Source: Escherichia coli (GTDB lineage Bacteria; Pseudomonadota; Gammaproteobacteria; Enterobacterales; Enterobacteriaceae). Taken from it: DNA of 64,000 bases. How positions within the stretch are numbered: the stretch's first letter is position 1; the number at the start of each line of letters is the position of its first letter. The notes under the pieces were generated by a model. That model worked only from the letters and a program-made list of their open reading frames with translations, was not told the DNA's origin and did no database searches. The translations under genes were made by a program, and so were the position numbers. This document shows, piece after piece, positions 43,694 to 51,685 of the stretch. The stretch lies in assembly GCF_041886205.1 (NCBI RefSeq), contig NZ_CP169029.1; one strand, 5' to 3'.

Positions 43694-45511
43694 ATGTATA
43701 ATTTTATCACTATAATGTATGATGTCTTTTCATGTTTTGGTGTTCTGGCTAAAAACCAGAATACCCGTGACATCCGAAATATTAAAAATTTTTCCTCACA
43801 TCAATATTCACTGGGCGACATGTTTGATGAATTAATAAACATTATTGATAAAGAACAAGTATTGAGTACAGAACAACGAAAAGTTATATTTAGGAGATAT
43901 GAAGATCTCTATGTTAAGCTAATGCACTATTCTGTTTTTACAGACCAAACACATCAAATAATAAAACAAAAATATTTTAATGACATTGTACCAATGATTC
44001 TCGCACTCGACATCAGGAACACATATCGCCCGGATAATGAGATGGCATTTTACTATCATATTCATTCTTTTCTCACTCAGATACCGGATAATGAGGATGA
44101 TATATATCATGCTGCAAGGACATATCTGCGAAATTACGTTAAGTTATGTTTATCCGGATACACACCAGCGAATGCGCATTTCAAAGATATCTTTGATGGC
44201 GTATATGAATTCATTCGTAATATTCGCAAAAACAGTACACCAGGAAAAACAAAACTTATCGCAACTATCAACACATGCAAAGAAACCTGTAAACATCTGC
44301 TTTATTTAAGTAATGAAGACAAGGAAAAAATAATTTCTGACTTAGATAAAGTTCAGGTTGCATGTTATTATCTCACTATATTACTGGCTTTCGAAAGACG
44401 AACTTCATTAACAAGCACCCTGGCAACTTTATATAAAATGCTGATAAGCGAAAGAGAAGTTTCAGAATATGAATGCCAGTTATTATATTTAACCAACCCA
44501 ATAGATGTAATGAATATACTGAACAAATACATATATTACTTTCCTAATGAAAACTCACCATTTTATACACTGAAAATTGACAGTGCATTATCGTGGGATG
44601 CCATTGACGCAATACGAGACTATAGTATTTCTGATATTTATCTTTATCCTGAACAAAAAACAATAAATTGTGTCGTTGAGATTGAAAACATTGTCTTTGG
44701 CGGTTACATTTATACATTGAACAACGGCGTCACATTACAAAACATAGAAAACACTTTAAAAGATTCTTCATGCCATTATGTCTTAAATGGCTATACAGAA
44801 TTTGTTAACTGTTTGATACAACTTACTTCAGGAAAGACTGAAAGTGTTCATCGCACCATCAATAAACTGAACTATGAGAAATTACCTTTTGGATTTATCA
44901 TTGCCGCGTTTGCTATACTAAAGATAGCATTTAAAATAAAATTCAGTAAAAATCATGTAAATATCCGAGCATTATTAAATGACATCAATTATTTTATGAC
45001 TTATCAGGGCGAGTCCATTAACCTTATTTCACTGGATCACGAATACCCAGAGTCCTGTCTTCAAAATGACACAAACACATATTTATTAGGAAGAGTAATA
45101 TTTCTGTATAACTCAATGATTTATAAGTTCATAAACTGTCAGGAACATGAAACCAATAACATTCACTCAGCTATGATAAATAACCTATTACAGGAAGTTG
45201 ATATAGCCCTTGGTAAAATAAATAACATTATAGACAGCAGAAACATATCAGCCCCCCATGAACTGGCAAATATTCTTACCCGCGAAAAAATACTTACAAC
45301 ACGGGAAAAAAAAGGAAACCTGATAAGCCTGTTTGATGGATTCACTTTATTCCATTGTGTTGGAATGATAACCTTTCTTATCCATTATCTCAGAACACCT
45401 GAAGAAAAAGTTGAAAATATATTTATGTTATATGGTGCAGATAAAAACAATAAACTACGCAGAAGACTGATTTATGACGCACTAGGAATAATTCAGTCTC
45501 AGCAGGAGTGA
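43694..45511 (+). CDS. Hypothetical protein, 605 aa, AT-rich orphan in the int-alpA variable slot
   Basis: Long uninterrupted ORF; very low GC versus flanks; no motif I can recognise. Confidence 0.5.
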   Translation: MYNFITIMYDVFSCFGVLAKNQNTRDIRNIKNFSSHQYSLGDMFDELINIIDKEQVLSTEQRKVIFRRYEDLYVKLMHYSVFTDQTHQIIKQKYFNDIVPMILALDIRNTYRPDNEMAFYYHIHSFLTQIPDNEDDIYHAARTYLRNYVKLCLSGYTPANAHFKDIFDGVYEFIRNIRKNSTPGKTKLIATINTCKETCKHLLYLSNEDKEKIISDLDKVQVACYYLTILLAFERRTSLTSTLATLYKMLISEREVSEYECQLLYLTNPIDVMNILNKYIYYFPNENSPFYTLKIDSALSWDAIDAIRDYSISDIYLYPEQKTINCVVEIENIVFGGYIYTLNNGVTLQNIENTLKDSSCHYVLNGYTEFVNCLIQLTSGKTESVHRTINKLNYEKLPFGFIIAAFAILKIAFKIKFSKNHVNIRALLNDINYFMTYQGESINLISLDHEYPESCLQNDTNTYLLGRVIFLYNSMIYKFINCQEHETNNIHSAMINNLLQEVDIALGKINNIIDSRNISAPHELANILTREKILTTREKKGNLISLFDGFTLFHCVGMITFLIHYLRTPEEKVENIFMLYGADKNNKLRRRLIYDALGIIQSQQE

Positions 45512-45698: not shown

Positions 45699-46901
45699 TT
45701 ATTTATTCACAATTTGAGACATCACATAATCCGCCCATGCCTGCATCATCGGTACACGCTGCTCCAGTAGATCAGTACGATGATATGCCGCCTCAACCTT
45801 ATTTTTCAGCGTATGAGCGAGCGCCCTTTCCGCCAGATCCCGCGAATACCCCTGTTCACTACACCAGTCCCTGAATGTTGAGCGAAAACCATGTGCCGTG
45901 GCAACTCGCCCCGGAATGTCACTGACGGCTTTCTTTTTACGCAGAAAACTTGTCAACACCATATCGGAAAGGATCTGCTGCTTTCTGGGTGAAGGGAACA
46001 CCAGTTCATCATGCAGGCCACGTATATTTTCCAGAATGTAAATAGCCTGCCGGGATAAAGGAACACGATGCTGTAGCCTGGCTTTCATTCTTTCTGCAGG
46101 TATAGTCCATACCCGCTTATGAAAATCAATTTCAGCCCAGCGCATTCCCCTGGCTTCGCCCGAGCGAGTTGCTGTAAGTATCACCATTAATAACAGTGCG
46201 CGGGTAACATTATAAGGTTCATCACTATACACACTGGTCGCCACAAAAAGCGGTAACTGCCTCCAGGGCATTGCTGGTTGGTGTTCATCACGTCCTCTTG
46301 TCTGCTGAGGAAGCAAATGGTCAACCACATCAACAGGATTTGCCACACAAAAACCGTGCGCCCATCCCCACTGCATAACAACATGAATGCGCTGTTTAAC
46401 CCGGCTTGCCGTTTCTGACAAGGTTAACCAGACTGGACGCAGTGTTTCTGCCACGTCCGCAGCCGTAATCGAATCCAGCGTTTTTGCTCCCAGTTGAGGA
46501 AACGCGTAATTCTCAAGCGTCGATAACCACTGCCTTACATGCTTTGGATTTTCCCATCCTGGAGACAATTCTGCATGTACACGCCTGGCTGCATCGGCAA
46601 ATGTTGGGATAACGACTTTCTCAGATTCAGCCTTTTTAATCTCCAGAGGATCATCACCTGCAGCAAGTTGCTCTCGCATTATCCGGGCAGTACGTGCAGC
46701 TTCAGCAATACTGACCTCTGGGTAAGTTCCCAATCCAGCATTACGTCTTTTTTGTGTCACCGGACTTACATAACGAAAAACCCATTTCCCCCGCCCCTTT
46801 ACTGAAGAAGGATGAAGGGTCAGTCCGGTAATTCCCCCATGGGGCAATGGTTTGTCATCAGGTTTGATATGTCTTGCTTTCGTATCCGTCAATACTGCCA
46901 T
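45699..46901 (-). CDS. int: Tyrosine integrase, P4/CP4-57 type
   Basis: 400 aa; N-terminal MAVLTDTKARHIKPDDKPLPHGG... and C-terminal catalytic region (HGFRSTFRDW...LAH...Y). Confidence 0.85.
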   Translation of the reverse strand: MAVLTDTKARHIKPDDKPLPHGGITGLTLHPSSVKGRGKWVFRYVSPVTQKRRNAGLGTYPEVSIAEAARTARIMREQLAAGDDPLEIKKAESEKVVIPTFADAARRVHAELSPGWENPKHVRQWLSTLENYAFPQLGAKTLDSITAADVAETLRPVWLTLSETASRVKQRIHVVMQWGWAHGFCVANPVDVVDHLLPQQTRGRDEHQPAMPWRQLPLFVATSVYSDEPYNVTRALLLMVILTATRSGEARGMRWAEIDFHKRVWTIPAERMKARLQHRVPLSRQAIYILENIRGLHDELVFPSPRKQQILSDMVLTSFLRKKKAVSDIPGRVATAHGFRSTFRDWCSEQGYSRDLAERALAHTLKNKVEAAYHRTDLLEQRVPMMQAWADYVMSQIVNK

Positions 46902-47061: not shown

Positions 47062-47522
47062 CCCCCTCACCGCCATATTTAAAGAAGAGCTCGTACGAAA
47101 GTACGGGCTTTTTTTTCGTATATTGCACACACCGGGGGGATGAGAATCCCCGACCGGGGGTCGACAACTGGCGGCAGCCAGTTGGACAGACCGTGAACGC
47201 AGTGAGCGGGCTGCCCGCAGGGCGAGCGAAGCGAGTCAATCCCCCCCTCACCGCCATATTTAAAGAAGAGCTCGTACGAAAGTACGGGCTTTTTTTTTCG
47301 TATATTGCACACACCGGGGGGATGAGAATCCCCGACCGGGGGTCGACAACTGGCGACAGCCAGTTGGACAGACCGTGAACGCAGTGAGCGGGCTGCCCGC
47401 AGGGCGAGCGAAGCGAGTCAATCCCCCCCTCACCGCCATATTTAAAGAAGAGCTCGTACGAAAGTACGGGCTTTTTTTCGTGTATTGCACACACCGGGGG
47501 GATGAGAATCCCCGACCGGGAT
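47062..47522 (+). repeat. Tandem ~180-bp repeats (about 2.6 copies), each beginning with a tRNA-Ser(GGA)-like 3'-end copy (attachment core)
   Basis: Unit starts at about 47062, 47243 and 47424; copies 2 and 3 carry AATCCCCCCCTCACCGCCA; each unit also contains a hairpin plus T-run (GCTCGTACGAAAGTACGGGCTTTTTTT) and further stem-loops. Confidence 0.7.
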
Positions 47523-47528
47523 ACTTAG

Positions 47529-48215
47529 TTAATGCAACGGTTCACTCTTTGTCGCCGCGACTAATGGGCGAATTTTGTCACGAGTCTCCCAGACCGGAGG
47601 GATTTCCTCCAATTTAGTGACAGAAGCTCGTACAAAAGGCACTCGTGCAAGAGTCATAATCGTATCCAACCAACGGTCACGAATAATGCGATCCGCCCTT
47701 TCATGACTCGGGTCATCCAGCTCAATAACACAGACTATTTTATTGTTCTTCTTTGAAACCAGAACATAATCCATTGCCATGCCATTATAAATTGCAAAGA
47801 AACGCTTTCTTTCTTCTTCGCTAAACTCAGGTTGTTCTGGATAGTTGAGCAAGCGCCCCAGAGAGACCTGGCAATGGATATGACAATAATGTCCAAACCA
47901 TTTCTCCAGATTATCGAAATACATTTTTTCACAACGCGTGATTAACCACTCTTTTCCTTCCAATAAAATACCTTCGGCAACCATTCCCTGAAATAACTCA
48001 TCTCGTTCTTGCCAACGAGAGTCACGATAGGTTTTCTGCGGTATATAGGTCCTTGTCGACGACTTAGCAGCAGGGGAAGTTGCAGATGAAGGGACTGGTT
48101 GCGATTTAGCGATGATTACCGATGAGGCAACTTTTCGGAGTGTCAATTTTCTGGCAACAGCAAAACCGGCGACAAATGCAATTGTCAAACAAGTTACAAA
48201 AGCCATAAAGCTCAT
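47529..48215 (-). CDS. DUF2726-like membrane-anchored protein (restriction-endonuclease-like fold)
   Basis: 228 aa; N-terminal TM helix; C-terminal motif KIVCVIELDDPSHERADRIIRDRWLD. Confidence 0.45.
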   Translation of the reverse strand: MSFMAFVTCLTIAFVAGFAVARKLTLRKVASSVIIAKSQPVPSSATSPAAKSSTRTYIPQKTYRDSRWQERDELFQGMVAEGILLEGKEWLITRCEKMYFDNLEKWFGHYCHIHCQVSLGRLLNYPEQPEFSEEERKRFFAIYNGMAMDYVLVSKKNNKIVCVIELDDPSHERADRIIRDRWLDTIMTLARVPFVRASVTKLEEIPPVWETRDKIRPLVAATKSEPLH

Positions 48216-48766
48216 AATTAATTTTCACTTATCCATGTTGATTATATTTCATTACCAATGTTACTCGCTGAAGCGTGTTACATGCCAACAATGCAACGAT
48301 CAATATATAGTTAGTATCATGTTTTGATTATTACAACCATCCCTATTTTGCCATTGCAGCTTGCCTTCCACAAAAAAAATAACAACAAACAATATTAGCC
48401 AAAGAATTAATTAAGATTAACCTTGCATTTATAATATTATCCCTAAAGAATAAATCAGAGGAATATATTCGGTGTTAATCAGTCAGTCAAATTATGGCCC
48501 ATTGTTGATTAAACCTCATAAGCAAAATTGGCACCAGATCTCCTGTACAGGTTGAATGGCCGAAAAAAGATAGGCAGATGCTCGCTTTTTTGGCTTCTGG
48601 AAGAAAAACTCTCCGCACTGGCAGTATTACACTGGTCTGATGCTATGACGAAAAATGCCTGGTAAGAGTATCTAAACCAGACTCCAGTTCAGCTTATCAA
48701 CACGCTCAAAGTCGCCCCCCTGAACGCTAACCTGAAGTTAAAGTCTTTGCTGTTAATGAAATAAAA

Positions 48767-48790
48767 CAAAGCCCGGTTCGCCCGGGCTCT
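48767..48790 (-). terminator. Rho-independent terminator of phoH
   Basis: Minus-strand GCCCGGGCGAACCGGGC hairpin followed by TTTGTTTT. Confidence 0.55.
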
Positions 48791-48805
48791 GCACCGATAA
48801 CACAC

Positions 48806-49729
48806 TTAACTGTATGCATGCAGCGTACGTTGGCAAAGTGCCGAACGTACGCAATCCTCTTTACCGAACCGGACGATCCCAACCATTTCATCTTCTTCGA
48901 AACGTTCCAGCGCGTCACTTAATCCGGAGCACACGCCGCGAGGCAAATCGCATTGCGTGATATCACCGTTGACGATAACTGTCACGTTCTCCCCGAGGCG
49001 GGTTAAAAACATTTTCATTTGCGCGGCAGTCACATTCTGCGCCTCGTCAAGAATGACGACTGCATTTTCAAAGGTACGTCCACGCATATAGGCGAAAGGC
49101 GCAATTTCCACCTTCCCTATTTCCGGTCGCAGGCAGTACTGCATAAAGGAAGCCCCTAAGCGCCGGACCAGCACGTCGTAAACCGGGCGAAAATAGGGAG
49201 CAAACTTTTCTGCGATATCTCCAGGTAAGAAGCCAAGATCTTCATCGGCTTGCAGAACTGGACGGGTGACGATAATCCTGTCGACATCCTTATGTATCAG
49301 GGCCTCTGCCGCTTTTGCTGCGCTGATCCAGGTTTTTCCGCACCCGGCTTCGCCCGTGGCGAATATCAGCTGCTTACTCTCAATAGCCTTCAGATAGTGC
49401 AATTGCGCTTCATTACGCGCGAGGATGGGCGAAGTATCGCGACTGTCGCGGGCCATACCAATGGCTTCTACGCCGCTCATTTGCACAAGCGAGGTGACCG
49501 ATTCTTCTTCACGCTGCTTATGGCTGCGCGAATCCCGTCTCAGCACACGTTTTGCCTCGCGACGAGCTTTGATCACTGCTTTTTGTCTTCCCATGGAGAG
49601 CACCTTGAGTTGTTTGTATTCATCACACGCGCCGTTGGCAGCGCGATTATGCGCACGAACATCAGAGGGTTGGCTTCCTTGTAAGCCATAGTTTGCTTTT
49701 GGATAAAATGCCGAAAAACGGCTACGCAC
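48806..49729 (-). CDS. phoH: PhoH (phosphate-starvation-inducible ATPase); start codon uncertain
   Basis: PhoH/YbeZ motifs (GEAGCGKT, VILDEAQN); synteny with efeB. Confidence 0.85.
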   Translation of the reverse strand: MRSRFSAFYPKANYGLQGSQPSDVRAHNRAANGACDEYKQLKVLSMGRQKAVIKARREAKRVLRRDSRSHKQREEESVTSLVQMSGVEAIGMARDSRDTSPILARNEAQLHYLKAIESKQLIFATGEAGCGKTWISAAKAAEALIHKDVDRIIVTRPVLQADEDLGFLPGDIAEKFAPYFRPVYDVLVRRLGASFMQYCLRPEIGKVEIAPFAYMRGRTFENAVVILDEAQNVTAAQMKMFLTRLGENVTVIVNGDITQCDLPRGVCSGLSDALERFEEDEMVGIVRFGKEDCVRSALCQRTLHAYS

Positions 49730-50069
49730 ACCGTTTGCGGCGTCGGTAACACGAGTAAAGAGAGGAAGTGAGAAAAATACAGAGTGACGAAGTTGCTACC
49801 GGAGGAGAAAACTCCGCGAGTGGTGGCGCGTTGATTATCTAAAACATGTCCAGTATAGGACGTTACCATCCGCGATCTCCATAGTGACTGACTATCACTG
49901 CCGGGAACTTCCGCTGCTACTTAATAAGTACAACAGATCTCGCATTTATTGCAACAATATATTTACTTATATTTAACTATAAAACACCATTTTAGTGACA
50001 TTAGTTTCTACTGGAAAGATGACAGAGTGATGACAGTGATGAAAAAAGCTGTGTGCTTTCAGCAGGATT

Positions 50070-50405
50070 TGCATCAGGCATCAGTGCACGATCGCCGGAT
50101 GCGGCGTAAACGCCTTATCCAGCCTACCAAACCCGCACCGATTATAGGCATGATAAGACGCGCAAGCGTCGCATCAGGCATCAGTGCACGATCGCCGGAT
50201 GCGGCGTAAACGCCTTATCCAGCCTACCAAACCCGCACCGATTGTAGGCATGATAAGACGCGCAAGCGTCGCATCAGGCATCAGCGCACGAACGCCGGAT
50301 GCGGCATCAACGCCTTATCCCGCCTACCGAACCCGCACCGATTGTAGGCATGATAAGACGCGCAAGCGTCGCATCAGGCATCAGCGCACGAATGCCTTAT
50401 TCGCC
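50070..50405. repeat. REP/BIME cluster (three tandem units)
   Basis: Repeated GCCGGATGCGGCGTAAACGCCTTATCCAGCCTAC and partner palindromes between efeB and phoH. Confidence 0.75.
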
Positions 50406-50413
50406 TAAAAACA

Positions 50414-51685
50414 TTAAACCCGCAATAACGCGCTTCCGAGATAATCATTCGCGTCCTTCACTCCCGGCAGCGCAAAAAAATAACCGCCGCCGATGGGTTT
50501 AACGTATTCCTCCAGCGCTTCGCCATTGAGCCTTTTTTGTACTGTCAGGAAGCCTTTTTCCAGATCGTGTTGGTAGCAGACAAACAGTAGCCCCATATCC
50601 AGTTGCCCGGAGTTGGTGACGCCCAGTGAATAACTGTAGCCACGACGCAGCATCAGGCTGGACTCACTCTCCGCCGTACGGGGATTCGCCAGCCGGATAT
50701 GGCTGTCCAGCGCGATCACCTTCCCTTCAGGGTCGCTGGCGTAATCAGGCACATCATGCTCATGCTGCATTCCCAGCGGCGCACCGGTTTGCTTATCACG
50801 GCCAAAAATCGTCTGCTGTTCTTTCAGCGGCGTTCTGTCCCAAAATTCCACTCGAAACTGAATCAAGCGTACTGCCTGATAGCTGCCACCAATTGTCCAC
50901 GCAGGCTCCTGCTGATCTGCCGTTACCCACACCACTTTTTGCATCAACTTATCATTCTGGCTATCGGGATTGGCAGTGCCGTCTTTGAAACCCAGCAAAT
51001 TAATCGGCGTCTCTTTGCCTTTACTACGCGCTGCGTGATCGGAAATAAACCCTTCCCGCTTCCAGCGCACACTGAGCAAATCCGGCGTGTGTTTGATGAT
51101 ATCGCGCAGCGCATGGATCACCGTGTCCTGGGTGTTGGCGCAAATTTGTAGCAACACATCACCATGACATAACGCCGCATCCAGCGAGTCGTTGGGGAAA
51201 CGCGTCATCTTCTGCAACTTTTTCGGCATCTGTGGCGCAAGGCCAAACCGCTCATCAAACAATGAGTGGCCCACCGATAACGTTATGGTGAGATTATCGG
51301 GCGCAATGTAGCCGCCAAGAATGCCGGAATCGAGTGGTGGCAGGCGCGGATTTGGCGTTTCTGGTGCCGCTCCGCCCTGAGTCAGAAAAGCAAAACGCTG
51401 AGTCAACAAGCGAAACAACCGTTCAAGATCGGCTTTATCGCTGGCAAGCACATCAAACGCCACCAGCATCATTGCGGCCTGTTGTGGCGTCAGGATCCCT
51501 GCCTGATGCTCACCATAAAACGGCTGTTTCTCATTGCGTGCATCCGGTGAAAGCGTGCCCGGTGCACTTTGCGTTTTTTGTGCATGAACGACCGGACAAC
51601 TTCCCGCCAGCGCCAGCGCACCAATCCCTTTCAGTAAACGTCGGCGTGACGGTTCATTCACGCCGTTTTCATCTTCATACTGCAT
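50414..51685 (-). CDS. efeB: Dye-decolorizing (Dyp-type) peroxidase EfeB, Tat-secreted
   Basis: 423 aa; twin-arginine signal [16 protein letters not shown]. Confidence 0.9.

Follow-up and report, generated by a model that had tools for sequence, protein, structure and literature searches.

SNIPE, which combines a TM helix, a DUF4041 domain and a GIY-YIG nuclease, cleaves lambda DNA at injection, and the protein becomes toxic and nucleoid-bound when its TM helix is removed (Saxton et al., bioRxiv 10.1101/2025.11.03.685801). Its DUF4041 domain is a DNA- and tape-measure-binding module (bioRxiv 10.1101/2025.11.03.685801). Within the PD-(D/E)XK superfamily, the DUF2726 family falls into the Vsr/DUF559 group (Steczkiewicz et al. 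2012, PMC3424549). No functional study was found in the literature on DUF2726, PF10881 and four RefSeq protein accessions, in agreement with the preliminary description of the present locus, which called proteins of this type poorly characterised.

The DNA analysed here, referred to as the window, is a stretch of 64,000 nucleotides from Escherichia coli (contig NZ_CP169029.1) in which a complete gene for a 228-aa protein lies between serX-associated repeats and phoH (Table 1), as had been described. RefSeq lists this gene in >1000 genomes under the name 'DUF2726 domain-containing protein', and the finding thus amounts to having correctly recognised a family that is known, and already annotated in RefSeq, but uncharacterised. 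The additions made by this analysis are modest, namely a clean dimorphism between the pga genes and the DUF2726 gene at this locus and the consistent embedding of the closest paralogs in loci for conjugation or type VI secretion.

Table 1. Features of the DUF2726 locus and of related loci; positions are those of the window unless another locus is named.
Feature	Position	Strand	Basis or remark
605-aa ORF between P4-type integrase and IS1 fragment + AlpA gene	43694-45511	+	
P4-type tyrosine integrase of adjacent island	45699..46901	-	Pfam Arm-DNA-bind_3, Phage_int_M, Phage_integrase
RtT-like 182-bp repeats after serX, about 2.5-3 copies	47062..47520	+	repeat search; alignments with LHM10-1 and K-12
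serX-phoH variable interval	47521-48765; K-12 locus L002 8058-18830		
TM-DUF2726 gene, complete	47529..48215	-	ORF, ATG start, 228 aa
DUF2726 core, predicted Vsr-like PD-(D/E)XK fold (residues 90-205)	47601..47948	-	
Motif IELDDPSHERADRIIRDRW (residues 164-182)	47670..47726	-	invariant columns in 110 homologs and in 18 close homologs
Ser/Pro/Ala/Lys-rich disordered linker (residues 32-65)	48021..48122	-	pLDDT 47-66
Predicted N-terminal TM helix (residues 3-22), then basic stretch RKLTLRK	48150..48209	-	hydropathy, AlphaFold2
AT-rich (32-42% GC) upstream region, restricted to the locus form with DUF2726	48216..48765	-	composition
Candidate promoter-like TATAAT	48246-48241		alignment; 25 nt 5' of ATG
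Candidate promoter-like TTGACT-17-TATATT	48490-48462		promoter scan
phoH intrinsic terminator	48766..48792	-	terminator scan; right end of variable segment, K-12 homology starts
phoH, conserved upstream neighbour, same orientation	48806..49729	-	
Rfam Ysr251 match	48811-49004	+	antisense to phoH 3' end
Four tandem naRNA4 (REP/BIME-type) elements	50035-50420		phoH-efeB gap
Type VI-linked close copies	L103 7001-7648; L104 8001-8657; L012 7001-7636; L004 6001-12272		
230-aa membrane protein gene and TM-DUF2726 gene, F-like plasmids	L096 4059-5261; L108 3059-4261		
Variable copy number of 182-bp repeats	L003 19004-20000; L015 8908-9000		

The N-terminal part of the protein was evaluated by hydropathy and by an AlphaFold2 model for which 110 homologs served as input. 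A segment at residues 3-21 (FMAFVTCLTIAFVAGFAVA) reached a Kyte-Doolittle value of 2.3, with no positive charges before it and four after it, and residues 3-31 formed a helix in the model at a pLDDT of 91-96, both of which agree with the TM helix proposed in the preliminary description. By the positive-inside rule, a hydrophobic segment followed by positive charges predicts that the N-terminus lies outside and that the C-terminal nuclease domain is cytoplasmic. The true start of the protein may be Met4, as homologs begin at the residue that aligns with it. The linker that follows the helix differs between homologs in both length and sequence, as seen from variable alignment columns.

The domain search confirmed the restriction-endonuclease-like DUF2726 domain, a homology on which the preliminary description had staked its claim. 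Pfam DUF2726 (PF10881) matched the core region at E=1.7e-18 and 67 bits, compared to a gathering cut-off of 24.7, and the alignment spanned positions 3-116 of the 126 in the family HMM. The mean pLDDT of the model was 86.7, and a compact alpha/beta domain extended from residue 70 to the end of the protein at a pLDDT >93. Its restriction-endonuclease-like core superposes, as a predicted model, on solved members of the fold, of which Vsr was the nearest, with I-Bth0305I and a DUF559-like protein also close. Residues E96, E165, H171 and D180 were invariant in the 110 homologs, while D149, D167, D168, R176 and R179 were kept in at least 90% of them; E96 and D149 sit upstream of the motif IELDDPSHERADRIIRDRW. 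This conserved acidic/His core has the appearance to be expected of an active site. In comparison with the DUF2726 family the HMM match is clear, the pattern E...D...ExDD..H...R..RD is shared and no difference was observed, and in all aspects of sequence and predicted fold that were compared the protein is a typical DUF2726 protein and member of the Vsr-like PD-(D/E)XK group. An NCBIfam scan gave no match, and no defence model of PADLOC-DB 2.0 was matched at E values up to 1. The only PHROGs match was to a family without an assigned function, and no relative emerged when PDB sequences were searched with a profile.

From hydropathy, charge and the AlphaFold2 helix the protein is predicted to resemble SNIPE in having one N-terminal TM helix, an N-terminus on the outside and a cytoplasmic nuclease; like SNIPE it is encoded by a solitary gene, and its target discrimination would presumably also be spatial and not sequence-based. 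It differs in the nuclease, which is of the GIY-YIG type in SNIPE and of the predicted, unrelated Vsr-like PD-(D/E)XK fold here, in being half the size and in lacking DUF4041, as DUF2726 is the one domain found by Pfam. The absence of the defining domains of SNIPE places it outside the SNIPE family; it is not a homologue, but it may be a functional analogue with a SNIPE-like working mode. Identity to Vsr (PDB 1cw0) was 16%. Vsr is soluble and dcm-linked whereas the DUF2726 protein is predicted to be membrane-tethered and has no linked methyltransferase, and this latter feature also distinguishes it from restriction-modification systems. No DNA methyltransferase gene was found between serX and phoH.

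From the sequence and the model we infer that the domain is cytoplasmic, active and confined near the membrane. We tentatively propose, at chances somewhat short of even, that the protein is a nuclease confined to the membrane and directed against incoming DNA, and that it would thus form a barrier which targets foreign DNA by location. It would be a single-pass inner-membrane protein with its cytoplasmic Vsr-like PD-(D/E)XK domain on a flexible linker of ~35 residues, a tether that would keep the nuclease in a shell of ~10 nm beneath the membrane. Held at the membrane in this way, the nuclease would leave the nucleoid untouched and cleave DNA on its way through the inner membrane, for example injected phage DNA or DNA delivered by conjugation. 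The gene is solitary, with its own putative promoter region and no partner gene.

The same architecture could serve an abortive-infection or toxin effector, in which an inactive nuclease is held at the membrane until the linker is clipped upon an infection signal, resulting in degradation of the chromosome and death of the infected cell. The disordered linker is exposed between anchor and domain, the SNIPE construct without its TM helix is nucleoid-bound and toxic, and some proteins exist in which DUF2726 is joined to AbiJ N-terminal domains, all of which are consistent with such a function. The linker sequence is however not conserved, which makes a specific cleavage site improbable, and neither a recurrent neighbour nor a partner gene for a protease, sensor or antitoxin is present; we consider this mode of action quite unlikely.

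The gene was found in 1049 out of 5426 complete E. coli genomes (~19%) at 95.8-99.9% identity, and 1043 of these copies were full length. The Salmonella homolog shares 71% protein identity. For the last 160 codons dN/dS was 0.046 versus the Salmonella copy, a comparison in which synonymous sites are saturated, and 0.19-0.25 within E. coli; in the first 60 codons, which cover anchor and linker, it was about 1 within E. coli. These ratios, about 0.05-0.25, show purifying selection on the nuclease domain. The conservation in 1049 genomes, the protein identity to Salmonella and the purifying selection confirm that 47529..48215 is a genuine gene and not a chance ORF. Disrupted copies are known, including an IS1 insertion, a 139-bp remnant and frameshifted forms. 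These, along with forms in Salmonella that lack the TM helix, a weak ribosome-binding site and an AT-rich, possibly silenced upstream region, would be compatible with a catalytically dead or decaying remnant, which would either tether DNA to the membrane by binding it or have no present function. As the acidic/His core is invariant across phyla, the dN/dS of the domain is well below 1 and all but six of the E. coli copies are full length, this is a very unlikely explanation.

A scan of 1.8 billion representative proteins returned 920 relatives. A hydrophobic segment was present in 99 of the 110 sampled homologs, nearly always at the N-terminus and with positive charges after and not before it, and the same combination of TM segment and charge pattern was found at no fewer than 60 loci from Saccharibacteria, Verrucomicrobiota, Planctomycetota and Proteobacteria, and also in Firmicutes. 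Judged from these sequences TM-plus-DUF2726 is an old, widespread single-gene architecture. Two tandem DUF2726 domains stand behind one anchor in some relatives (P0042 and P0045), which hints at a dimer as the working unit. In Salmonella serovars such as Agona, forms of 151 aa that start at an internal Met and have no anchor (P0009 and P0010) occur on at least 1000 contigs.

The surroundings of the more distant members of the family were then evaluated from the 134 nearest genes of ~70 distant homologs. Housekeeping genes made up most of these, a scattered minority belonged to restriction-modification, Lamassu or Mza systems, and no recurrent partner gene or methyltransferase was observed among them. 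The absence of a conserved neighbour and of a linked methyltransferase rules out self/non-self discrimination of the classical restriction-modification kind. A frequent location in defence contexts, which the preliminary description had also ascribed to proteins of this type, is only weakly borne out: the scattered defence systems speak for it and the missing PADLOC match and the mainly housekeeping neighbours against it. A housekeeping role in membrane-associated DNA metabolism, be it Vsr-like nicking or repair, processing of DNA imported as a nutrient or in transformation, or resolution of DNA trapped at the membrane, would agree with Vsr being the closest fold, with the many homologs amid housekeeping genes and with the frequency of the family in Saccharibacteria and other small-genome lineages. 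The gene is however accessory in E. coli (19%) and absent from the K-12 and LT2 representatives, the family is frequent on plasmids, ICEs and phages, and linkage to a cytosine methyltransferase, as in vsr-dcm, is missing. A role of this kind is distinctly improbable.

Close paralogs, which are 36-50% identical and have the same architecture, gave a different picture from that of the preliminary description in that their recurrent contexts are conjugation and type VI secretion clusters rather than defence. In five ICEs the paralog is located right after traG_N and a small, divergently transcribed gene, and it is followed by an Integrase_1 recombinase gene in 4 of the 5, which are those with contigs that reach far enough. 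In two metagenomic type VI secretion clusters it is located between tssM/tssA and tssF, in Erwinia it lies directly upstream of vgrG, and the phoH-adjacent copy of Salmonella abuts type VI secretion genes (Table 1). The Salmonella type VI secretion island was not identified from literature on SPI-19 with phoH. F-like plasmids carry a more distant TM-DUF2726 gene in the order traG-(traS position)-traT-hyp-DUF2726-traD, and TM-bearing DUF2726 genes were also observed on IncHI2 and IncT plasmids. In total, 101 of the 116 plasmids with a DUF2726 match are conjugative. In Vibrio filamentous phages DUF2726 is found as an accessory gene. Between traT and traD of the F-like plasmids, the TM-DUF2726 gene is inserted together with a gene for a 230-aa membrane protein to which no function is assigned. 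Papers on mcr-1 plasmids describe a DUF2726 gene beside mcr-1-pap2, which is linked to the present gene by family name alone.

The paralogs hence share their neighbourhood with traS and traT of F and eex of SXT/R391, the entry and surface exclusion genes of these elements. DUF2726 paralogs are located after traG and after traS/traT, and like the exclusion proteins they are inner-membrane proteins, in their case by prediction. Exclusion proteins are not nucleases and act via protein-protein contact with TraG. Paralogs next to conjugative exclusion genes fit a barrier to incoming DNA. The conserved position after traG_N in five ICEs and the location inside the F-like tra operon, together with the two type VI clusters, the vgrG neighbour in Erwinia and the type VI neighbours in Salmonella, could alternatively mean that the protein is an accessory part of type IV conjugative and type VI machines, serving the machine, for example in DNA processing at the channel, and not the defence of the host, with the phoH copy being a leftover of such an island or a gene taken over from one. 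The E. coli and E. albertii gene is however solitary with no transfer genes nearby and yet under purifying selection, most of the ~70 distant homologs have no such neighbours, and conjugation has its own relaxase and no known role for a second nuclease. This alternative appears rather unlikely.

Returning to the proposed barrier, we count in its favour the intact ORF, the DUF2726 match, the confident model, the conserved core, the purifying selection, the hydrophobic segment of most homologs with positive charges behind it, the lack of a conserved neighbour or linked methyltransferase and the precedent of SNIPE, as well as the contexts connected to DNA entry, that is traG_N in the ICEs, the F-like tra operon, the conjugative plasmids and the Vibrio filamentous phages. 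Counted against it are the lack of a PADLOC match, the mostly housekeeping neighbours of the distant homologs, the lack of a module similar to DUF4041 of SNIPE, and the paralogs in type VI clusters and adjacent to vgrG, which DNA entry does not explain. The 151-aa Salmonella forms, which are common, argue against it as well since an active nuclease without its tether should be toxic, unless these are dead genes.

The proposal may be extended to the family as a whole, in that TM-DUF2726 proteins would represent a large class, spanning many phyla, of nucleases that are encoded by single genes, confined to the membrane and active in destroying DNA during its passage through the inner membrane. 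They would be used by chromosomes against phages and plasmids and by plasmids, ICEs and filamentous phages for nuclease-based superinfection or entry exclusion. This extension is doubtful at present. If true, it would be a second, independently evolved case of the SNIPE-type spatial self/non-self principle and would add a DNA-degrading layer to conjugative exclusion. A correct mechanism would furthermore assign a function to a very common and readily recognisable family of small proteins found in thousands of chromosomes, conjugative plasmids, ICEs and filamentous phages, and would make positional immunity at the membrane a general strategy and not a peculiarity of SNIPE. If there is no such role, this is an ordinary conserved hypothetical gene.

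The gene occupies a site that is filled differently in K-12, where pgaD directly follows phoH and homology to the window ends at ~48763, at the phoH terminator, in agreement with the preliminary description, which placed pga genes here in K-12. K-12 shares the serX repeats, the last of which runs into ycdU-ymdE-IS3-dgcT-pgaABCD, and rejoins the window at the phoH terminator. The serX-phoH interval is thus filled by either a 1.24-kb DUF2726 segment or a ~10.7-kb pga segment. A comparison of the phoH-proximal region across the 5426 complete E. coli genomes, which had been suggested as a check, showed these two forms: the phoH|pgaD junction was found in 4375 and pgaC in 4379, and the DUF2726 and pga states are almost perfectly complementary. 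The interval exists in E. coli in two alternative forms, the other one being pgaABCD-dgcT-ycdU, and as these are nearly complementary ~19% of complete E. coli genomes are without pga. In these genomes, O111 isolates included, the DUF2726 gene replaces pgaABCD-dgcT, a point of interest for work on PNAG-dependent biofilm and on gene flow.

A haplotype without pga was noted earlier with no mention of the replacing gene (PMC5635171), and linkage of pga to phoH was argued to be ancestral in Enterobacteriaceae by Echeverz et al. (PMC5464674). The presence of phoH-DUF2726 in E. albertii and in some Salmonella runs counter to this ancestry. The K-12 and LT2 species representatives gave no DUF2726 match. 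An ancestral phoH-DUF2726 arrangement, considered on the basis of E. albertii and Salmonella, was withdrawn given that LT2 and K-12 are without the gene, that synonymous sites are saturated and that Echeverz et al. (PMC5464674) argue otherwise.

An integrase-bearing island adjoins the gene on the other side of the repeats. In the preliminary description the gene was placed at the junction of island and core, which is accurate as to its place beside the repeats; of the two sides it belongs to the chromosome and not to the island, since it is kept in strains in which serX is unoccupied. Strains LHM10-1, GPEC856 and SCU-313 show ghrA-serX-repeats-DUF2726-phoH without island or integrase, and E. 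albertii shares serX-repeats-DUF2726-phoH, likewise without either. Adjacency of phoH and DUF2726 is also seen in some Salmonella. As the strains with an empty serX site and E. albertii retain the gene, it is on the chromosomal side of the junction and is not island cargo. The reading that it is defence cargo which arrived with the island draws on the short distance to the integrase, about 630 bp with nothing but att-like repeats intervening. Carriage without island in the three strains and E. albertii, and a junction at ~47060, on the opposite side of the repeats from the gene, contradict it; it is hardly credible and effectively refuted by the empty-site strains.

The island ends at ~47060 within one repeat copy, and the repeat region holds both this right junction of the island and the left end of the variable segment. 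Every 182-bp copy terminates in the tRNA-Ser 3' end CCCCCTCACCGCCA according to a motif search, and the Rfam RtT score of the repeats was 38 bits, under the gathering score. Depending on the strain, between about 0.5 and 5 copies of this serX-linked repeat were present. As ARAGORN detected no tRNA gene in the window, serX and the left end of the island lie before its start, which gives the island a length of more than about 47 kb. The 605-aa ORF next to the integrase has 33% GC, no Pfam or PADLOC match and the RefSeq name 'hypothetical protein'; its position recalls the accessory-gene hotspots of P4-like elements.

Upstream of the DUF2726 gene the phoH terminator stands between it and phoH, and no conserved small partner ORF was found at the locus. 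The 550-bp upstream region cannot be aligned with the shorter Salmonella spacer except near the start codon, where the candidate TATAAT is kept in Salmonella, and a promoter subject to silencing or regulation may be located there. The ribosome-binding site of the gene is weak. On the opposite strand of phoH the Ysr251 match scored 188 bits, compared to a gathering score of 100, and further on, two of the four naRNA4 elements scored above the Rfam gathering threshold.
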